Positions 8,112-60,676 of a stretch of DNA of 64,000 bases are shown piece after piece; position 1 is the first letter of the stretch; every line of letters starts with the position of its first letter. The translations under genes were made by a program, and so were the position numbers. The DNA comes from Candidatus Micrarchaeota archaeon (lineage in GTDB: Archaea; Micrarchaeota; Micrarchaeia; Norongarragalinales; Norongarragalinaceae), in NCBI GenBank assembly GCA_037444485.1, contig JBBIMI010000001.1, positions 32,001 through 96,000 on the forward strand, read 5' to 3'. Below the pieces are notes generated by a model. It was not told the origin of the DNA and did no database searches. It worked only from the letters and a program-made list of their open reading frames with translations.

Positions 8112-8582
8112 TCAACCCACTACCCTCGGTTTTCTGGTGATTACTGTTTCATTCAACGCGTTCGGGTGCATCGCAAAATAATCAGCTGCTTCCTTGTTTA
8201 ACGCGTCGTTCGGATTCGGTTTTTCGAGTAATTGCTTTAACGCTTTTACTAGGCTCACTAGCGTCGTGCCTTCACTCCACTCGTTTAAAAGCTGAATGCA
8301 TACTTTTCCGTCTTCGCTGCGAATGTTCGGGTGAAAGATTGGAGTCAACCAAGTGACTTCGATTCCGCCAGCGTAAGGGTATTCGCGCTTCAAATCGATT
8401 TGAATAGAGTGCGACTCGCGTTTTTGTAGCGAGTCCCCGTTCTTAAACAAGCTGACGCCGCGCAAGCTTATTACGTAACTCGTCTTCGACTCGTTAACCT
8501 CAAAATTTTCTTTGCTGGCAACCATTTGTTGAAACTCGCTTTCAAGCCTGCGTCTCCAAATCGCTTCAGGAAGCATTGGCAT
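8112..8582 (-). CDS. E2 ubiquitin-conjugating enzyme (UBC fold)
   Basis: RRLESEF N-helix, EYPY, TPIFHPNIRSEDGKVCIQLLNEWS (HPN plus catalytic Cys), PNPNDALNKEAA. Confidence 0.93.
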   Translation of the reverse strand: MPMLPEAIWRRRLESEFQQMVASKENFEVNESKTSYVISLRGVSLFKNGDSLQKRESHSIQIDLKREYPYAGGIEVTWLTPIFHPNIRSEDGKVCIQLLNEWSEGTTLVSLVKALKQLLEKPNPNDALNKEAADYFAMHPNALNETVITRKPRVVG

Positions 8583-8620
8583 TACAGACTACCTCGAAAA
8601 AACAGTTGAATGATTTGACT

Positions 8621-8884
8621 TCAACCGCCAGTCGGATCAGGCATCAACAGCAAACGACTCCCTTCCTTTAAACCAGCGTCTGCCACCGTAATTTCAGGAT
8701 TCAAAACCTTATCATCAACAGTAGATAAAACAAAACGGTCTTTTAATTGAAGGTTTTCAGCGAGCACTTCCAAAACAGAGCTGATTGTGAAGCCCGGCTC
8801 TACCGCAACAACTATTTCCTTCCCGCTCGTGGTATGCGTTACTGTAATGTTGAATTCTTTCGAAGGCGAACTTTCCGATTCCAT
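8621..8884 (-). CDS. Ubiquitin-like protein ending in Gly-Gly
   Basis: TTSGKEIVVAVEPGFTISSV and TVADAGLKEGSRLLL resemble ubiquitin [20 protein letters not shown] and TLSDYNIQKESTLHL; terminal GG; directly upstream of the E2. Confidence 0.88.
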   Translation of the reverse strand: MESESSPSKEFNITVTHTTSGKEIVVAVEPGFTISSVLEVLAENLQLKDRFVLSTVDDKVLNPEITVADAGLKEGSRLLLMPDPTGG

Positions 8885-8984
8885 GCAAAAACCACCTCAA
8901 TTAAAGCACGTTAGTTAAAGCAAAAGATATTTGAACACAATATAATAATAAGTGTTGCGGTGAACAAAAGAGGTTTTTAAACCC

Positions 8985-9461
8985 GTGAATGAAGAAAAGA
9001 AAAAACCAAAGACAATAAGTGAGAAAGACGCGGTTCAAGAAGCTGGCGTTAAAGAAACCGTTGAAGAAGAAAGCAAGGAAACCGCTGAATCTAAAAACGA
9101 AAACACTAAAGAGGCGGAAAAACAACTAGTGGAAACAAGTGAAACGAGTAAAACAAGCGAAAAAGAAGAGAAGAAGCCTAGAGTGAAAGTCGTTGTAGAA
9201 CCAGTTTTCGGCGAACGCGGAACAAAACCCGTCATAACCGTCACTAGCGAGAAACCGCGTTTAGTGCGTGAAGTAGAAGAACAAGCTGCTCGAGACGTTC
9301 TGCCAACACAATCTCCGCCGGGCACGCCGTTAGAAGCGCGGAAACCCTTGACGCGTGAAGAAGTAGTTGAGAAAGCGAAACAGGTTTGGGAAGAGAACAA
9401 GCGGAAAAAAAGTGAAGGTAAGTTCTTCAACCGCTTAAAACGCGCGTTGAAACTCGGTTAA
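8985..9461 (+). CDS. Hypothetical charged low-complexity protein in the ubiquitin locus
   Basis: E/K-rich 158-aa ORF, co-directional with JAMM; C-terminal amphipathic FFNRLKRALKLG. Confidence 0.7.
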   Translation: MNEEKKKPKTISEKDAVQEAGVKETVEEESKETAESKNENTKEAEKQLVETSETSKTSEKEEKKPRVKVVVEPVFGERGTKPVITVTSEKPRLVREVEEQAARDVLPTQSPPGTPLEARKPLTREEVVEKAKQVWEENKRKKSEGKFFNRLKRALKLG

Positions 9462-9480
9462 AGTTGTTTAAAGCGGTGAA

Positions 9481-9942
9481 TTGATGTTCGAGGTTTACGT
9501 TCACGAGAAAGTCTTAAAGAAAGCTGAAAAACACTGCGCACGCGAAGCAGAGAGAGGACTAGAAGCGATGGGTTTGCTTTTGGGAAACGCGTTCACGCAC
9601 AAGGGCCGTGAGTACGTTGTAGTCGAAGACTATTCCACTGGCGAGAATGAAGCAACAAGCGTTTCGGTGCGCTTTACGAAGAAAGCGTTTTCTAAACTCG
9701 CGAAAGACTTCGAGGAAGGTGGACGCATAATCGTTGGTTGGAGCCACGCACACCCGTCTTACGGTTGCTTCCTCTCAGCAACAGACTTGAAGACTCAAAA
9801 CAATTACTTTAACGAAGATTTCCACGTCGCGCTCGTCATAGACCCAACGCACAAAACGTCGAACGGTTTTGAAAAAAAGTTTTTCAAACTCTGCGCTGAA
9901 GGCTACCGCGAAGCTTCCTACGCGGTAATCAAAGAAAAGTGA
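9481..9942 (+). CDS. JAMM/MPN+ metalloprotease (Rpn11/CSN5-like deubiquitinase)
   Basis: EAMGLLLG and IVGWSHAHPSYGCFLSATD (HxH-x7-S-x2-D), ALVIDP. Confidence 0.93.
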   Translation: MMFEVYVHEKVLKKAEKHCAREAERGLEAMGLLLGNAFTHKGREYVVVEDYSTGENEATSVSVRFTKKAFSKLAKDFEEGGRIIVGWSHAHPSYGCFLSATDLKTQNNYFNEDFHVALVIDPTHKTSNGFEKKFFKLCAEGYREASYAVIKEK

Positions 9943-10952
9943 AAAAAATGCTTGGACAAAGCGAGACGCAGGAAAAAAACGCGAACGCACCCGCTGCTGC
10001 TGGCGCGTCAGCCGCAACTCCAGCGGCGAAGACGACAGTAAAGACAATGGTGGAGACGCGCAGAAAGAAAGCAGTCGTAAAGAAAACCGCGATTAAGATA
10101 ACTAAGTTTGATAAAGCGCTCGCGCAACAAATAATTTTAGGCGAAACTAACCTAAAGAAAATCCAGGAAAAAATGCGTGTCGACGAAAAACAATTTTTTG
10201 AACGCGTGAAGAAACTAGGCGACGCTGGTTACATTGTTATTAATGAATCAAGGGAAGCCTGGTTTGGAATAAAAGGCTTTGAAGCCTTCGCCAACCAATT
10301 CAAGAAACTTGCGTCTACGCCGACGCCGAAATCCCGCGCGCGACTGGAAGAAACGCCCTCCGCGGCGCAAGCACCGCAAGCGCAGCAGACGCCAGCGCAG
10401 CAAGCGCAGCAGACGCAACAAACGCAGTCTCCCTTCACACAGCCCACGGTTCCGCCTGCGTTAGACCCTAGGCAAACTTTTCTTGCTGAAGCGACTGCAA
10501 AAGAAAAAGATGAGGTCAACGTCGACTTGAGCGAATTGCTTAAAAAAGGTGCTCCTAAACCAAGCGACTCGATTTTCGTAAAACGCCAAAACGAAAAATC
10601 TTCTAGAGTGCTCTCTCGCGCGTTTGAAACAATTAAAACCAAGGATCCTGCAAAAGTCTCGACTGCAGGAGAATTAATTGAAGCGATTAAGAAAAGTAAG
10701 CCGAGCAGAGAGGCGTTGATGGTTGACGGCGGCGAGGCTTGCGAATTGTGTAAAGCAAATTTTAAACTCGCTGTTGCAGGAGACGGCAACCCAAAGTACG
10801 GCCACTGCTTCTGCGGAGCAGCCTACCATAAAGACTGTTACGAGTCCCTCGCAGGCAACAGCGGAAAATGCGTGCGCTGCGGCAAGAAACTCAAACTCGA
10901 GTTAAGCAAACAAAGCGAAGAAGCGGTTAAAGAAATAAAGGAATTATTCTGA
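9939..10952 (+). CDS. Putative RING-type E3 ligase (N-terminal wHTH-like, Q/A-rich linker, C-terminal C4HC3 finger)
   Basis: CELC-x18-CFC-x4-HKDC-x10-CVRC; overlaps the JAMM stop (GTGA), indicating translational coupling. Confidence 0.75.
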   Translation: MKKMLGQSETQEKNANAPAAAGASAATPAAKTTVKTMVETRRKKAVVKKTAIKITKFDKALAQQIILGETNLKKIQEKMRVDEKQFFERVKKLGDAGYIVINESREAWFGIKGFEAFANQFKKLASTPTPKSRARLEETPSAAQAPQAQQTPAQQAQQTQQTQSPFTQPTVPPALDPRQTFLAEATAKEKDEVNVDLSELLKKGAPKPSDSIFVKRQNEKSSRVLSRAFETIKTKDPAKVSTAGELIEAIKKSKPSREALMVDGGEACELCKANFKLAVAGDGNPKYGHCFCGAAYHKDCYESLAGNSGKCVRCGKKLKLELSKQSEEAVKEIKELF

Positions 10953-10990
10953 GAAAGCGTGAAGTACCCTAAAATACTGGGTTCCGACTT

Positions 10991-11752
10991 TCAATGCACT
11001 GGGCAACTAACGCGTTTCGGAACTTCAAACAACCGTGCAGTCGACTTCAAACCGTCCAGAAAGAGGAACTTGCCTGCAAGCGTTTTCTCGCCGAAAGAAT
11101 CACTGTGCACGAGCTTCAAAAACTCGTTCACTTGAATTCCTGCAACAACGCTCGTCGTCGTCGGAAGCGCCGGATTCTTTGGGTTAATCCAATCAACTAA
11201 CTCTCCCACACAATTGTACTTTTGCCACAAAAGCTTGTAATCGCTTTTACTCAACCCGCACTCGAGACACGAAGAAGGAGCGCGCACTACTTGCACTTTC
11301 CCGAAAAACCCGGTTGTTCCCCCGTCAATCAAAGGAATCTTGCTGTAACACTGGGCGTTCAAATGCAGTCTCGCACCCAAGTTGTCGAGACAACCGAAAG
11401 CGTAATCGAAATTTTCGTAAAAATCTTCAGGAAGTTCTTCAATCTTCTCAGTGAAAACGCGTACCTCGGCAGTCGGATTGATTCTTGCAGCTTCGCGTTT
11501 TACCACATCAACCTTCGGCAAGCCCACGTCTCCCTCGCTAAAGAAAACACAGCGATTCAAGTTCGCTTTCACAATCGAATCGAAGTCTACAAGCGAAATG
11601 TTTTTTACGCCGAGTTGAAGCAAGAGCTTGACGACTTCATTTCCAAGCGCGCCAGCGCCGACTACAAGCACGCGCGCCTCCGCGACTTCAGTCTGCCTCC
11701 AACCCTTCACGCGCTTTTGCCTATCGTGAACGTCCTCATCAATCGCAACCAT
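10991..11752 (-). CDS. E1-like ubiquitin-activating enzyme (ThiF/MoeB/UBA family)
   Basis: DRQ, VLVVGAGALGNE, DFD...NLNR, GCLDN..AR, CLEC, NCVG (candidate catalytic Cys), PALPTT, terminal CPVH. Confidence 0.9.
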   Translation of the reverse strand: MVAIDEDVHDRQKRVKGWRQTEVAEARVLVVGAGALGNEVVKLLLQLGVKNISLVDFDSIVKANLNRCVFFSEGDVGLPKVDVVKREAARINPTAEVRVFTEKIEELPEDFYENFDYAFGCLDNLGARLHLNAQCYSKIPLIDGGTTGFFGKVQVVRAPSSCLECGLSKSDYKLLWQKYNCVGELVDWINPKNPALPTTTSVVAGIQVNEFLKLVHSDSFGEKTLAGKFLFLDGLKSTARLFEVPKRVSCPVH

Positions 11753-45555: not shown

Positions 45556-46710
45556 ATGAGTAAAGCGTTTCAAGCAACGCAAACAATGAGTAATTTAGAC
45601 TTGTTTTACTTACTGCGGGAATTGAGGGTGTTGGAAGGCGCGCGGCTTTCGAAAGCGTACGGATTCGCGCCTAACGCGCCAAACGTTTTCCGCTTTAAGT
45701 TTAAGGCTTCTGGCGGCGAGTTAAACCTGCACGTCGACTTGAGTGTCGGGATGTGGTTGACGAAGTACTTGAGGGAACCGCCGAGACAGCCTGACGCTTT
45801 TGTAACGAAATTGCGGAAGGATTTGGAGAACGCCCCGCTTTCTGAAGTAAAGCAATTAAATTTCGACCGAGTAGTTTCACTCGTTTTTTCTACTAAAGTT
45901 GGGGAACGCGTCTTGATTGTGGAATTCGTCGGCAACGGCAACCTCTTATTGCTCGATGAAAACAAAAAAATAATTCAAGCACGCGAAAACCGTAATTACG
46001 TTGTTCGGAAGCTGCGTGCGGGCGCAAGGTACGTGCTTCCCTCGTCGGAAAAGAAAAACCCGAGCGAGCTTAATGAAAGCGACCTGCGTGGATTGCGCGG
46101 GGGCGTGGTTTCCGCATTGTTCAAAAAAGTGAATTTGTCGCCTTTTTACTTGGAGGAAGCCTGCGCGCGGGCTGGAATCGAGTTCTGTGAGAAAATCGAG
46201 GAACTTGAAGCAGAGAAACGAAAGGCGCTTGCCGACGCGTGCAGGAAATTGCTTGCAGAGAATTCCACGCCAAGAGTTTACGTTGTTGGCGGTCGGGCAG
46301 CCGCATTCGCACCCTTCGAATTAAAGAAATTAAGAAACGCGGCGAATAAAGAATTCGAGAGTTTTTCTAGAGCGTTGGATGCTTATTATGCGGAACTCGT
46401 TGGAGAGAGAGGCTCGCGCGAGGAGAAGGCGGAAACGCGTTTCGAAAAAGAATTAAGCGAGTTGCGCGCATTGCTTTCAAGGCAGGAGCTGTCAGCAAGC
46501 GCGTTAGACAATGAGGCTAGAGAAAAAAAGCTTTCTGGGGATTGGATTTGCGCCAATTCAGGTTTAGTCGAACGCGTTATCGAAGAAGCTCGCGCGCTTA
46601 AGAGCGGCGTCGATTCTAGGGAAGTTGAGCGCCGGATTGCGGCGTTGAGTGGAAAAATCAAAAAAACATCTATTGCTGGCGCTGAATTGATTATTGAAAC
46701 TGGCGAGTAA
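45556..46710 (+). CDS. NFACT/Rqc2 family protein, N-terminal part only
   Basis: F..KLRK.L, QLNFDRVV, EFVGNGN, Y.LP, E.C.RAG, F.SFS.ALD.YY and coiled coil. Confidence 0.8.
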   Translation: MSKAFQATQTMSNLDLFYLLRELRVLEGARLSKAYGFAPNAPNVFRFKFKASGGELNLHVDLSVGMWLTKYLREPPRQPDAFVTKLRKDLENAPLSEVKQLNFDRVVSLVFSTKVGERVLIVEFVGNGNLLLLDENKKIIQARENRNYVVRKLRAGARYVLPSSEKKNPSELNESDLRGLRGGVVSALFKKVNLSPFYLEEACARAGIEFCEKIEELEAEKRKALADACRKLLAENSTPRVYVVGGRAAAFAPFELKKLRNAANKEFESFSRALDAYYAELVGERGSREEKAETRFEKELSELRALLSRQELSASALDNEAREKKLSGDWICANSGLVERVIEEARALKSGVDSREVERRIAALSGKIKKTSIAGAELIIETGE

Positions 46711-47969: not shown

Positions 47970-48123
47970 TTTTAGTTAAACTCTAATTAAACGCTTTGAG
48001 TCAAGTGAAACTATTTCGCTTCATGTGAATTTAAATGCTTTGGTGAGTTCCCTTAATGCTTTAAAGGCACGGCTTTCTATTCCAACAACCCACTTAAAGC
48101 AGGTTCATCAACATCTAACTGAA

Positions 48124-48525
48124 TTAAACTACTCTTAAATCTATGGTTTTGCGGACCTCATTTAAAATGTGGCCGTAATCGCGGTAGTGTGATACTGCAA
48201 ACACCTTGATTTTGTAAGTGCCTGGTTCGGTGCGTTGCGTGGACCAAACAGGTATTGAAAGTGTTTTTGTTTCGTTTGGTTGTAAGAGGCCAACGCGCAC
48301 TTCCCGTTGTTGAGTCAAACCAGTTTGGTCTGTAGCTAATGGTTTTTGAACCTCTACGACAACTGAAGTCAAGAGTTCTTTGTCGAGGTTGTTAGTCAAG
48401 TGAATGATTAAGTCGGCGCCGTCGTTCTTGTGCGCATTCAAACGAAATGGGTGTATTTCAGTCCGTAAGGAGTAAATAGTGTTTGTAATTATTGGTTTTT
48501 TTCCGAACAACTCAAACAAACCCAT
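48124..48525 (-). CDS. Hypothetical Ig-like beta-sandwich protein
   Basis: VGLLQPNETKTL, PGTYKIKV pattern. Confidence 0.6.
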   Translation of the reverse strand: MGLFELFGKKPIITNTIYSLRTEIHPFRLNAHKNDGADLIIHLTNNLDKELLTSVVVEVQKPLATDQTGLTQQREVRVGLLQPNETKTLSIPVWSTQRTEPGTYKIKVFAVSHYRDYGHILNEVRKTIDLRVV

Positions 48526-48746
48526 TTCAAATCAACCTTGTTACGCGGCTTTTAAAAACACTTAACGCCGCAAAAAACTGTTAAAACATTGAAACATTGT
48601 TGAATAAAAATTTTGAATAAAAATTCAGTTATTATTTAATCATGATTTAAATTAAAAAACATTGTTTTTGATGGTTTTAAGTAATTTGTTGTTTTATGGT
48701 TTTGTTTGGGGTTGTATGGTTTAGTGTTTGGTCAGCGTTAAACACG

Positions 48747-49160
48747 TCAAACATTAGTTTCAACCCACGCGCGCCACCACTCCGCATTTTTTTCAAGGAT
48801 TTGAGAAAAACTAGTAGACAAGTAGATTAATTGGTTTCGCTTTCCTCGCGCGAAAACAATGAGCCCGGATTTGTTTAATGCGAATAAGAGTAAGTACAAC
48901 GTGCTTTTCTTCAATTTCAAGTTAGTTTGGAGTTCGGTGAACGTTTGAGGTTTTTTCTTCAATTGTTCGAGCACGTTGATTGCGAGTTCTTTTCGCGTAC
49001 TTGAAAAGAAAAAAGCGTTATTTATGAAGTCGTATAAAGTGTATTGTCTTGAAAGTATTTTTTGAACGTCTGTTGAATTTACTCTAAAATAAGTGGTGGT
49101 TTGTTGTTTTTGTTTTTGGTAATTAGATTTTGGTTTCAAGTTTTGTAGCTCGTTCAACAC
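48747..49160 (-). CDS. Winged-helix protein
   Basis: PQTFTELQTNLKLKKSTLYLLLFALNKSGLI. Confidence 0.7.
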   Translation of the reverse strand: MLNELQNLKPKSNYQKQKQQTTTYFRVNSTDVQKILSRQYTLYDFINNAFFFSSTRKELAINVLEQLKKKPQTFTELQTNLKLKKSTLYLLLFALNKSGLIVFARGKRNQLIYLSTSFSQILEKNAEWWRAWVETNV

Positions 49161-49369
49161 ACACCCTCCAATTCCACTATTTTCGGTTTTTTAATATATT
49201 GTGTTTCGATAATATATTATTAGATAATAATAATGATAATAAAATAATAAATAATGCATTATTGTTTTGGTAATAATGTTGTGTTTCGGTAACACACTAC
49301 ACCTTAATACTAACGAAAACTAATTAAAAACTAATCAAATAATATTTGATTAGTTGGTTGTTGGTTTAA

Positions 49370-49891
49370 ATGATTTTATCTAAGAAAGAGATTTTGAAGG
49401 CGATTAAAGCAGGCATAATAAAAATAACACCTTTTGATGAAAGTAGCGTCGGTGCGTGTTCTGTTGATTTGAAGCTTGGTTACGAATTCAAGAAATTTGT
49501 TGGTAAAAAACAAAATATTGTAATTGATTCATCTTTTGTTCGATTAAGTGAAGATTATTGGAAGAGCTTGCGTTTACAAAAAAATAAACCAATAACAATA
49601 AACCCTAAAGAGTTAGTTTTGGGAACTACTTTAGAAAGAATTAAGTTAAGTAATTCTATTTGCGCTTTTATTGACGGTCGAAGTCGTTTTGCTAGAGCTG
49701 GCTTACTTGTTCACGTCAGCTCTAGTTTGATTCAACCAAGTGTTGATAACGTTCAAGTGCTTGAAATCATTAACATGTCTTCAACCCCAATGAAGTTATT
49801 TCCAGAAACTAAGATTTGTCAAATTATTTTTCACGAGCTTAAGGGTACTGCTGAGTATTCAGGCATTTTCAAAAACCAAACAAAACCATAA
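49370..49891 (+). CDS. dcd: dCTP deaminase
   Basis: SVDLKLG, LGTTLE, GRSRFARAG, VLEI.N, ICQIIF, F..Q. Confidence 0.88.
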   Translation: MILSKKEILKAIKAGIIKITPFDESSVGACSVDLKLGYEFKKFVGKKQNIVIDSSFVRLSEDYWKSLRLQKNKPITINPKELVLGTTLERIKLSNSICAFIDGRSRFARAGLLVHVSSSLIQPSVDNVQVLEIINMSSTPMKLFPETKICQIIFHELKGTAEYSGIFKNQTKP

Positions 49892-50051
49892 AACAACAAA
49901 TTACTTAAAACATTTCATACAAATTACTTTTAAAATAGTTTTAATTGGAAGTTTATTTGGTGGAAAGTAGAAAGCCTTAATATTATTTTTAAAATTATTT
50001 TGTTTGGTTCATAAGTTTTAGTGAAAGTCCTAATAAAATTATAATTGATGT

Positions 50052-56060: not shown

Positions 56061-56188
56061 GGGCTCGTAGCTCAGCTTGGCAGAGCGACCGGCTCTTAAG
56101 CGAAAAACTAAGCGAAAAACAGCAAGCGTTGTTTTTCTCGCGGTTTCGGGAAACCGGTAGGTCGAGGGTCCGAATCCCTCCGAGCCCG
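56061..56188 (+). tRNA. tRNA-Lys(CUU) with 54-nt intron at 37/38 (56099-56152)
   Basis: GGGCTCG/CGAGCCC acceptor, GCTC/GAGC D stem, ACCGG/CCGGT anticodon stem with loop CTCTTA^A, GAGGG/CCCTC T stem. Confidence 0.9.
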
Positions 56189-57461: not shown

Positions 57462-58409
57462 TTAGGCGAGTTCGACTCTCGCTCCCTGCTTTATCGCGCT
57501 GATAACGCGCGCGTTAGCGCGCTTGGCTTGCTCTTCGTTTAAGCCTTTCGTAATCACGTTGCCGTTAGGCAGCAAAACTATCTTGCCTGGACGCGTTTTT
57601 AATTCGATGATGCGTTTTGTTTTTAAGCCGCGCACGTTGTTTTGGAAAAAGTATTCTTTGTTACCGCATAACGCGAATGCTGGCGTGGAAGCGTCGTCAG
57701 CCTCAACGATTTCCTGGTTTTTTTCGGCAATGTTTTTTTTTGTTTTTGGGCTGCGTGCACACGCGACGCACGCCAAGTTTTTTTGTAGGTTTATGGTTGT
57801 TGAAGCGCCAGTTTTCTTGTCAGCGTAAAAAAGAATTCCGGCGTAACGCGGCTTGCCTTCAAGCAAACTAATCAATTCTTCAACTTGTTTTTTCGCGGCT
57901 AAAGCGGTTGCAGTTGGAGAAATTCCTTCCACGCTGCAGCTTCGCGGCAGCGTTTGTTTTGGATTCCAGCAAGCAAAGCAAGGCGTTTTTTCTGGAATTA
58001 TTGTTGAAATCATGACTTCGCTGCGTATTGCGGCAGAGAAAATCCATGGCTTGCGCGCGCGCAAGCAGTACTCGTTCAAGACGAAGCGCGTTTGAACGTT
58101 GTCTGTGCAGTCTAGCACGATATCCGTTTTTTCAAGCAATCGCGTAACGTTCCATTGGTTTAAGTGTTCGGTGGAGGCAATCACGTTCGCGCCAGACTTC
58201 TCTAATTTTTTTTTGGCTGCTGCGGCTTTGAGAAAGCCGACGTCGCCAGCATCGAATAGTTTCTGCCTCGGCAAGTTGTTTTGTTCGATAAAGTCTCTAT
58301 CGATTAAAACAAGTTTTTGGAAGCCTGTTCTCGCTAGTTGTAATGCGGTGTTCGCGCCTATCCCGCCGACTCCGACTACTGCAACTACTGTATCCAGTGT
58401 TTTTCGCAT
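57462..58409 (-). CDS. ThiF/MoeB-family adenylyltransferase (second E1-like)
   Basis: VGVGGIG, DRD...NLPRQ, DCTDN..TR, PCFAC, SCSVEG, CVAC plus C-terminal LCG domain. Confidence 0.88.
   Translation of the reverse strand: MRKTLDTVVAVVGVGGIGANTALQLARTGFQKLVLIDRDFIEQNNLPRQKLFDAGDVGFLKAAAAKKKLEKSGANVIASTEHLNQWNVTRLLEKTDIVLDCTDNVQTRFVLNEYCLRARKPWIFSAAIRSEVMISTIIPEKTPCFACWNPKQTLPRSCSVEGISPTATALAAKKQVEELISLLEGKPRYAGILFYADKKTGASTTINLQKNLACVACARSPKTKKNIAEKNQEIVEADDASTPAFALCGNKEYFFQNNVRGLKTKRIIELKTRPGKIVLLPNGNVITKGLNEEQAKRANARVISAIKQGARVELA

Positions 58410-58489: not shown

Positions 58490-60676
<2,187 letters not shown>

Follow-up and report, generated by a model that had tools for sequence, protein, structure and literature searches.

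Operons that combine genes for ubiquitin (Ub), an activating enzyme (E1), a conjugating enzyme (E2), a RING-type ligase (E3) and an Rpn11-like deubiquitinase (DUB) have been described from Caldiarchaeum subterraneum, a member of the Aigarchaeota (PMC3082918, PMC5654768, PMC6043591), and from Asgard archaea. For Caldiarchaeum, sequential formation of E1~Ub and E2~Ub and E3-dependent conjugation were demonstrated biochemically (PMC5654768). Complete prokaryotic systems of this kind, with an E1, an E2, a RING protein, a ubiquitin-like modifier (Ubl) and a DUB, are central to the debate on the origin of eukaryotic ubiquitylation. Here we analyse a 64,000-nucleotide stretch from a Candidatus Micrarchaeota archaeon (assembly GCA_037444485.1, contig JBBIMI010000001.1, positions 32,001 to 96,000), hereafter the window, in whose own numbering all coordinates are given. 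Judged by its sequence, the six-gene locus that it carries is real and makes up a complete system of Ubl conjugation and deconjugation in a DPANN archaeon.

SAMPylation, in which UbaA acts as the only enzyme of activation, SAMPs serve as modifiers and JAMM1 reverses the modification, requires no E2 or E3. Fuchs 2018 describes Ub/E1/E2 operons as accompanying those JAMM proteases that are nearer to Rpn11, and names RING partners for Caldiarchaeum and Asgard archaea alone (PMC6043591). Hennell James 2017 likewise knows only small RING proteins in archaea, and gives a ubiquitin-like (UBL) domain at the C-terminus as most frequent in the E1 enzymes of its Clusters I and II and as entirely absent from those of Cluster III (PMC5654768).

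A full-text literature search found no paper reporting such a system in Micrarchaeota or in DPANN archaea. In papers centred on the Norongarragalinales, ubiquitin is absent from the main text, to which that search was confined, supplements lying outside it. The string Micrarchae does not occur in the supplement text of Hennell James 2017; the species of Supplementary Fig. 1 are named in an image, outside the text searched. New, set against this record, are the lineage, the pairing of an E1 that lacks a ubiquitin-fold domain (UFD) with a RING-fold E3 candidate, the two-domain build of that candidate and a partner protein, here called X.

We consider it probable that these six genes, chromosomal and inherited vertically, form a system by which a Ubl is attached and removed, and that the system is confined to a single order of Micrarchaeota.

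Composition of the locus

Open reading frames (ORFs) of the window and their translations were scored against Pfam curated cut-offs, NCBIfam equivalogs and PADLOC models. A preliminary description of this DNA, made from the letters alone, had claimed six ORFs arranged as Ubl-E2, X-JAMM-RING and E1 on alternating strands. On re-reading, all six are in place with their catalytic motifs intact, and the strand arrangement is correct: Ubl and E2 lie on the minus strand, X, JAMM and the zinc-finger gene are closely packed on the plus strand, and E1, again on the minus strand, converges on the zinc-finger gene (Table 1). This layout suggests three transcription units, and the spacer between the first two is presumed to hold a putative bidirectional promoter region. 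The proposed identities of E1, E2 and JAMM were also borne out, their families scoring above curated Pfam cut-offs and their catalytic residues being conserved. None of the six proteins passes an NCBIfam equivalog.

Table 1. Features of the six-gene locus, in window coordinates
Feature	Coordinates	Strand	Details
E2 ubiquitin-conjugating enzyme	8112-8582	-	156 aa; UQ_con, HPN 84-86, Cys95
Ubl, ubiquitin-like modifier	8621-8884	-	87 aa; ...MPDPTGG-stop
Divergent spacer between Ubl-E2 and X-JAMM-E3	8885-8984		100 bp, AT-rich; TTTAAA and ATATAATAATAA stretches
X, charged protein	8985-9461	+	158 aa; no known family
Rpn11-like JAMM/MPN+ isopeptidase	9481-9942	+	153 aa; JAB
Candidate E3, zinc-finger protein	9939-10952	+	337 aa; start overlaps/abuts JAMM stop codon
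Winged-helix domain of candidate E3	10086-10322	+	residues ~50-128; AF2 model and Foldseek
C4HC3 cross-brace (RING-fold) zinc finger of candidate E3, then conserved C-terminal helix	10734-10886	+	residues ~266-316
Minimal E1, ThiF/MoeB-type	10991-11752	-	253 aa; ThiF, GAGALGNE

The E2 matches UQ_con with 70.6 bits (Pfam cut-off 27) and is the sole UQ_con match in the genome. As had been claimed, it has an HPN motif and a candidate active-site cysteine; H84, P85, N86 and C95 are invariant in 29/29 aligned homologues. An N-terminal helix with the pattern LP..W.RR..E is conserved as well (its L-P invariant), and after a variable linker the extreme C-terminus reads P-R-V/I-V/I, the Pro being invariant and the Arg nearly so. 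A possible function of this conserved tail is to dock the UFD-less E1 or some other partner. In the PDB the best matches are E2s of eukaryotes, yeast Ubc1 (1fxt, 7.7e-12) ranking first; even so, UQ_con scores are 55-73 bits across the order versus 110-134 for the top-scoring canonical Asgard E2s, and by this measure the E2 family of the order is divergent. The E2 itself is not hidden, since several of the E2s are already labelled 'ubiquitin-conjugating enzyme E2' by the NCBI pipeline.

With 47.6 bits for JAB (cut-off 22.5), the JAMM protein is the one protein of the genome that matches this family. Its Rpn11-like character, also part of the preliminary description, stands: the motif is complete (E28, H89-x-H91, S99 and D102), and among solved structures the Caldiarchaeum Rpn11-like protein 6fjv comes out nearest (1.1e-12), with CSN5 and Rpn11 after it. 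The NCBIfam desampylase model matches it weakly, with 23.2 bits against a cut-off of 130. The true start is likely the ATG at 9484, with GGTGA just upstream.

The Ubl scores 24.3 bits for Rad60-SLD (cut-off 23.8), a marginal match, and 17.1 bits for the ubiquitin model, below its cut-off of 25.4. When a profile of 25 Ubl homologues was run against the PDB, ubiquitin ranked first, with weak E values of 0.002-0.017 for mono-ubiquitin, and MoaD, ThiS and SAMP were not among the top 60 matches. ThiS is a weak Pfam match in 5/25 of the homologues. The protein does end exactly in Gly-Gly, as described before: ...PDPTGG stands directly before the stop codon, and the same Gly-Gly-stop ending is found in 38/38 aligned sequences. 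No Lys or Arg lies close to the ...MPDPTGG tail. The Ubl is encoded already mature, with processing not needed, and because no maturation step is called for, the JAMM protein is expected to work as a deconjugase.

The E1 consists of an adenylation domain alone (ThiF, 174.5 bits, cut-off 28.1, covering residues 19-252 of 253), with no C-terminal UBL/UFD domain and no separate catalytic-cysteine domain. Its best NCBIfam matches, ThiF, MoeB and UbaA, are all below cut-off (UbaA 87.3 versus 450). In an alignment of 69 rows, made up of the window protein and 68 ORFs of Micrarchaeota, Thermoplasmata and Solirubrobacterales loci, C162-x2-C165, the crossover-loop residue C181 and the C-terminal C250-P-V-H253 (C250-x2-H253) are conserved. 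By analogy with MoeB, ThiF and UbaA, these are read as a Cys3-His zinc site and a candidate catalytic cysteine.

The window also encodes a second ThiF/MoeB-family E1 at 57462-58409 on the minus strand (315 aa; ThiF 171.7 bits; no equivalog passed). It is divergently oriented to a Cdc48 AAA ATPase gene at 58532-60676 on the plus strand (TIGR01243, 1126.7 bits), and may be a SAMP/Urm1-type activating enzyme next to an unfoldase.

Host lineage, distribution and gene order

The host assembly comprises 961,727 bp in 58 contigs and is 95% complete with 0.2% contamination. The named homologues of the E2 and of the zinc-finger protein all come from metagenome-assembled genomes (MAGs) of Candidatus Micrarchaeota, Micrarchaeia or Norongarragalinales. 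The order that bears the system is most probably Norongarragalinales, because the closest relatives include LFW-144_1, which is Ca. Norongarragalina meridionalis (PMC8561730), as well as MAGs titled Norongarragalinales. This order belongs to the DPANN phylum Micrarchaeota and is sister to the other Micrarchaeia (PMC8561730). The DPANN-type host proposed earlier is thus supported by the named homologues and by the phylum sample described below; the host is a micrarchaeote rather than an Asgard or Aigarchaeota member, the two placements that would have made the locus an already described one.

UQ_con is present in 47/401 sampled genomes of the phylum, the host genome counted. Without the host, it occurs in 46 of 48 genomes of the same order and in 0/352 genomes of other families of the phylum, and the two negative genomes inside the order are 76-78% complete. 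A full set of conjugation genes in genomes of about 1 Mb, fixed in one DPANN order, offers a clean phyletic contrast for asking how such a system is used in a reduced and probably host-associated cell.

A motif-based scan with one genome per species returned 238 E2 relatives, and the best 80 loci of the 238 were used for comparison. They comprise 39 from Micrarchaeota, 2 from Asgard archaea (as established by a later genome search), 32 from Thermoplasmata and related euryarchaea, and 7 from Solirubrobacterales bacteria. Six-frame ORFs of each locus were compared with the window proteins by phmmer at E <= 1e-3. Among the 39 Micrarchaeota loci, the Ubl was found in 37, the JAMM protein in 35, the zinc-finger protein in 35 and the E1 in 31. 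The five core genes occur together in 30 of these 39 species loci, and in 30/30 they have the order and strands seen in the window, which in the orientation of the loci reads E1 / zinc finger-JAMM / Ubl-E2.

Of the nine partial loci, eight are broken off by a contig end. The zinc-finger match adjoins the JAMM match in 35/35 Micrarchaeota loci that have both, and the flanking genes for D-aminoacyl-tRNA deacylase (DTD) and Lhr helicase are kept in 26 and 21 loci, respectively. Since the five core genes keep their order and strands in 30/39 loci, their association is far beyond chance. The split gene order had been pointed out in the preliminary description, and the synteny survey in relatives shows it to be the same in every complete locus; it is therefore an inherited feature of the order and not an accident of this genome. 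The gaps between E1 and the zinc-finger gene and between DTD and E1 in relatives were checked for a second conserved small gene and hold only variable, unrelated insertions; the window itself is without gaps of that kind.

A winged-helix protein with a probable RING-fold zinc finger

The zinc-finger protein has no Pfam family. None of its 113 homologues has a precomputed Pfam domain, every named organism among them is a micrarchaeote, and the source names are 'hypothetical' except for one JGI label, 'DNA-binding Lrp family transcriptional regulator'. In the Protein Atlas its sole match is a cluster of hypothetical proteins from archaea. When 1.84 billion cluster representatives were searched with a profile of 48 full-length members, 120 matched at E <= 1e-3 and 69 of these reached <= 1e-30; the weak tail of matches covers the N-terminal part only. 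Because so few representatives match, the family is small and lineage-restricted. A C-terminal profile run on five outgroup genomes found nothing in those of Thermoplasmata and Solirubrobacterales and weak RING-like matches only in the two Asgard genomes, the best (5.2e-7) being a VWA-RING protein.

The AlphaFold 2 (AF2) model begins with a winged helix (predicted local distance difference test, pLDDT, of about 96), followed by a low-confidence linker and then by the zinc finger and terminal helix. Foldseek relates the winged helix to the winged helix-turn-helix (wHTH) domains of MarR, DtxR, MntR and AspA, with probabilities up to 1.0 and E values of 0.01-0.1. The C4HC3 finger that had been noticed earlier was recovered with all eight ligands: C268, C271, C290, C292, H297, C300, C311 and C314. 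Seven of the eight are invariant, and C290 is nearly so, being His in one relative; together with a C-E-L-C motif, the eight positions are invariant or nearly so across 48 homologues. H289 is not a ligand, since it is Tyr in two relatives.

Two independent structure searches point to a RING fold for this finger. With a domain model of pLDDT 70, RING E3s fill nearly all of the top Foldseek rows (E 0.12-0.6, probability up to 0.97). The top 50 of a Foldseek-independent VIA-align search of 48,161 chains are almost entirely RING or U-box domains, at Z scores of 4.0-5.2; because Z below 8 may, as the tool warns, reflect a common arrangement, we place weight on the uniformity of the list and not on the score. 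Below the Pfam thresholds, Prok-RING_1 matches 33/33 members (best E 3.9e-4) and zf-RING_2 matches 29/33 (best 7.9e-5), and the best PDB profile match of the finger is the gp78/AMFR RING (E 0.0056).

We also predicted the complex of the E2 with the finger domain. The score was 0.46, against 0.01 for the best of three controls and hence 0.45 above every control; at least 95% of contacts are shared between the runs, and partner pLDDT is 75 or more. In calibration the mark was reached by 116/157 solved complexes and by 2/215 mismatches, and at scores of 0.60 or less it was reached by only 18/157 solved complexes together with both passing mismatches. Since the model may have learned from solved RING-E2 complexes, a pass may show likeness rather than binding. 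From these models we predict that the zinc-finger protein is a probable E3, which makes it the first candidate for a multi-domain archaeal E3.

A conserved charged partner

Protein X contains 26 Lys and 31 Glu in 158 residues. It has no match in Pfam, NCBIfam or PADLOC and no usable match in the Protein Atlas. A hidden Markov model (HMM) built from six close relatives and run for three hmmsearch rounds over all locus ORFs finds a homologue in 23/39 Micrarchaeota loci and in the window locus, and has 0 matches in the loci from outside the Micrarchaeota. In the loci inspected, the match lies in the region between JAMM and Ubl, on the JAMM strand. Homologues share the motif EQAxRD[IV]xP, followed by a short helix and then by a basic, hydrophobic C-terminal tail (...GKFFNRLKRALKLG); GFFGKLKAALGF is an example of such a tail end in the homologue alignment. 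On this pattern of conservation, X is a real conserved family and the sixth component of the cluster.

The last 18 residues of X carry a net charge of +3 to +7 in 28/28 homologues, and the helical hydrophobic moment of the window's own tail was equalled in 0/500 shuffles. Some tails (...KKKGFLQKLFGG) may resemble the membrane-targeting sequence of MinD. The tail alignment left out the longest gap ORFs without the motif from loci L002, L003, L010, L012, L020, L021 and L034; the HMM later located X in other ORFs of L002, L003 and L020. X may be an adaptor, a membrane tether or anchor, or a lysine-rich preferred substrate.

Proposed mechanism

From gene presence, folds, synteny, phyletic pattern and catalytic residues, we infer a series of chemical steps, a role each for the zinc-finger protein and X, and a cellular purpose. 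The Ubl would be made mature, with its C-terminal Gly-Gly. The ThiF-type E1 would adenylate this C-terminus and probably form a thioester on the crossover-loop residue Cys181, from which the Ubl would be handed on to Cys95 of the single E2. The winged-helix/RING-fold protein, acting as an E3, would dock the charged E2 through its C4HC3 finger, while its winged helix would select the target or the location. The Rpn11-like JAMM protein would take the tag off again. X, a disordered, Lys- and Glu-rich protein with an RD[IV]xP motif, would be a co-inherited partner and serve as adaptor, anchor or preferred substrate.

Because the genome also encodes the alpha and beta subunits of the 20S proteasome and Cdc48, housekeeping protein regulation or turnover is the likeliest purpose, and a link to the proteasome and Cdc48 is possible, both being encoded. 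The neighbourhood of the cluster is of a housekeeping kind, with ribosomal proteins, a tRNA synthetase, the mevalonate pathway and enolase; the near neighbours are Lhr helicase, D-aminoacyl-tRNA deacylase, a Nudix protein and mevalonate enzymes.

More tentatively, and as a reading that we think rather improbable, we put forward an elaborated cascade in which the lineage has added a winged-helix-C4HC3 RING E3 of its own and an obligatory disordered, Lys-rich X to an E1-Ubl-E2-JAMM core of the Thermoplasmata/bacterial type. If true, substrate-directed, E3-dependent tagging would have been invented independently, outside the line of Asgard archaea and eukaryotes. The winged helix might then aim tagging at proteins bound to nucleic acid, and the membrane of an ultrasmall, host-dependent cell might be where X acts.

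Alternative explanations

Several observations weigh against an E3-dependent ubiquitin-like cascade of the kind proposed here. The likeness of the Ubl to ubiquitin is marginal, and the E1 has no UFD/UBL domain by which its recruitment of the E2 could be explained. The RING domain passes no curated sequence cut-off; the structural scores (Z about 5, Foldseek E > 0.1) are modest, which is usual for a domain of 50 residues, and are not decisive; and the verdict on the complex of E2 and finger is weak support only. The spacing C-x-C-x4-H-x2-C is neither that of RING-HC nor that of RING-H2 and lies between the consensus patterns of RINGv and PHD fingers, the latter of which are not known to be E3s. 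The hydrophobic moment of the X tail is above that of shuffles (<= 0.1) in only 7/28 homologues. Two Micrarchaeota loci also depart from the common arrangement: in L024 (4683-7471) the zinc finger-JAMM/Ubl-E2 genes are present with no E1 within 4.6 kb, and in L038 (3-1397) an E1 lies directly upstream of Ubl-E2 with no JAMM or zinc-finger gene between, an arrangement that resembles the gene order of Thermoplasmata.

The most serious rival reading, which we regard as unlikely, takes the zinc-finger protein to be a winged-helix transcription factor that regulates the cluster, with the finger as a structural zinc module, and leaves an E3-independent, E1-E2-only Ubl system like the E1-Ubl-E2-JAMM operons of Thermoplasmata. 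It would account for the N-terminal domain, a high-confidence wHTH like those of the MarR, DtxR and MntR repressors, for the Lrp-family label given to one homologue by JGI, and for related Thermoplasmata operons without a match to the zinc-finger protein in the flanking DNA scanned, and it gains from RING matches that all fall below curated cut-offs and from a complex prediction that lends the E2 contact weak support only. However, both fold searches yield RING or U-box domains almost exclusively and not zinc ribbons or other treble clefs, and the ligands and C-E-L-C are kept across the 48 homologues. The gene also overlaps the JAMM stop codon and lies beside JAMM wherever both are found (35/35 loci), and the score of the E2 with the RING exceeds every control by 0.45. 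The roles of regulator and E3 could coexist. A different proposal, far less probable, is that the Ubl and E1 form a MoaD/ThiS/SAMP-type sulfur carrier system that serves the thiolation of a cofactor or of tRNA, with the other genes as unrelated neighbours. Although the E1 is of the minimal ThiF/MoeB type, with best NCBIfam matches to ThiF and MoeB that are all far below cut-off, and ThiS is a weak match in 5/25 Ubl homologues, an HPN-Cys E2, an Rpn11-like JAMM protein and a RING-fold protein are co-conserved in 30/30 complete loci, the Ubl profile finds ubiquitin and not MoaD, ThiS or SAMP in the PDB top 60, and the second ThiF-family E1 (57462-58409) could serve sulfur transfer. We give this explanation the least credence of all.

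Antiviral defence of the Bil, CBASS-Cap2-Cap3 or 6A-MBL kind, with the Ubl put on viral or effector proteins, had been suggested in the preliminary description and now seems very improbable. Bacterial E1/E2/Ubl/JAB operons are known as defence systems (bioRxiv 10.1101/2023.09.26.559546). The JAMM protein matches PADLOC JAB models (best 1.5e-7) and BilC (1.3e-4), and the E1 matches Cap2-type 'E1-E2' models (best 7.5e-14) and BilD (4.8e-6). However, a second, housekeeping-type ThiF paralogue matches the Cap2 models as well or better (4.9e-18), so the E1 matches reflect generic Rossmann-fold similarity; the E2, the Ubl and X have no PADLOC match, and no specific PADLOC family was matched. The neighbourhood is a housekeeping one with no cyclase, effector or mobile-element gene nearby, and the system is present in 46/48 genomes of the order, in single copy and at a fixed chromosomal position. 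Defence genes are typically patchy and island-borne, the opposite of this pattern. An antiviral function is unlikely because of this context, the fixed and near-universal single copy and a PADLOC similarity that is only generic, and we favour a vertically inherited system of protein regulation or turnover.

Related loci outside the Micrarchaeota

The closest arrangements outside the phylum differ in their layout. Thermoplasmata and Methanomassiliicoccales have co-directional E1-(Ubl)-E2-JAMM operons, whereas the Micrarchaeota cluster is split and includes the E3 candidate and X; Solirubrobacterales have clusters of the form E2...E1-E2-JAMM. A phmmer search of the flanks of the Thermoplasmata and Solirubrobacterales loci found no winged-helix/RING protein and no homologue of X.

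A quick maximum-likelihood tree of the E2 had 73 rows, the window E2 and 72 E2 domains out of the 127 that were found. The Micrarchaeota, Thermoplasmata and canonical Asgard rows were thinned by dropping every second one, and the tree contained no Caldiarchaeum or eukaryotic sequences. Thermoplasmata, Solirubrobacterales, the canonical Asgard E2s and a divergent Asgard pair each form one clade (Shimodaira-Hasegawa-like approximate likelihood ratio support, SH-aLRT, 94-100). The tree is star-like, with the Micrarchaeota rows at an unresolved centre, backbone support of only 73-89 and long branches that meet, and for this reason no donor or sister group can be named. The nearest E2s from outside the Micrarchaeota, the divergent Asgard pair L041 and L042, are solo genes with no E1, JAMM or zinc-finger gene nearby.

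Three further observations concern these outside loci themselves. The genome that carries L042 (G402) has the title 'Candidatus Bathyarchaeota archaeon', yet its phylum sample is the one that also contains Sigynarchaeum (Asgard), so that the NCBI title and the GTDB placement seem discordant. In the Thermoplasmata loci L043-L046, the JAMM match lies inside a stop-to-stop frame of about 600-890 aa (for example L045:7296-9965), and for this reason the JAMM of some Thermoplasmata E2-JAMM-E1 clusters is probably one part of a fusion with large additional domains; in most of the remaining Thermoplasmata loci there is a compact E1-(Ubl)-E2-JAMM operon. Each E2...E1-E2-JAMM cluster of the Solirubrobacterales (L064-L067, L071, L076 and L080) carries two distinct E2 paralogues.

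Other features of the window

Elsewhere in the window, an NFACT-family protein is encoded at 45556-46710 on the plus strand (NFACT_N, 150.5 bits); in eukaryotes, ribosome quality control involves NFACT/Rqc2 together with the RING ligase Listerin. An Rfam tRNA match at 56061-56188 on the plus strand (51.9 bits) spans 128 bases, which implies a tRNA intron; ARAGORN found no tRNA in the whole window. The guanine-plus-cytosine fraction is 0.331 at 48001-50000 versus 0.43-0.51 in the rest of the window.

Comparison with known systems

SAMPylation and Urm1 likewise use a ThiF-family E1, a beta-grasp modifier that ends in Gly-Gly and a JAMM protease. Unlike SAMPylation, the Micrarchaeota locus has a co-conserved E2 and RING-fold protein, and its JAMM is nearer to Rpn11 and CSN5 than to the desampylase. 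By its membership, the locus falls outside both SAMPylation and the bacterial antiviral Ubl systems.

The same five parts are found in the Caldiarchaeum and Asgard systems of Clusters I and II: a Ubl ending in Gly-Gly, an E1, an HPN-Cys E2 of UBC fold, a cross-brace E3 candidate and an Rpn11-like JAMM. In both, the genes are clustered and JAMM is transcribed apart from Ubl-E2, and it is the Caldiarchaeum enzyme itself that provides the best solved relative of the Micrarchaeota JAMM. The Ubl, E2 and JAMM thus have the character of Clusters I and II, but an E1 with UBL and catalytic-cysteine domains is lacking. The E1 of Caldiarchaeum has a C-terminal UBL domain and a catalytic-cysteine domain described or predicted in PMC5654768, whereas that of Micrarchaeota ends at the zinc motif. 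The same paper reports that Rpn11 removes nine extra residues from Caldiarchaeum ubiquitin (PMC5654768), whereas the Micrarchaeota Ubl has no propeptide. A naturally minimal system, with an E1 of 253 aa, an E2 of 156 aa and a mature Ubl, is attractive for biochemistry and structural work. Further differences are the size of the candidate E3, which at 337 aa joins a winged helix to a C4HC3 finger where Clusters I and II have a small RING-H2 protein (srfp), the extra conserved gene X and the DPANN host.

With Cluster III, described in Supplementary Note 4 of that study (PMC5654768), the locus shares a minimal ThiF/MoeB-type E1 without a C-terminal UBL domain. The 'eukaryote-like' character given to the locus in the preliminary description consequently holds for the presence of all the named components and fails for the E1, which is of the kind found in the less eukaryote-like Cluster III. 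The E1 pattern C-x-E/Q-C ... [YF]-x-C ... C-x-x-H is common to Micrarchaeota, Thermoplasmata and Solirubrobacterales, and the E2s of the latter two were retrieved with the same W-L-T-P-I-F-H-P-N motif. In their sequences, then, the E1 motif pattern and the missing UBL domain appear to tie the system to the Thermoplasmata and bacterial kind, and the JAMM to the side of Caldiarchaeum and eukaryotes. That a RING-fold E3 candidate is found together with a UFD-less, ThiF-type E1 is relevant to the question of which parts of the cascade came together first.

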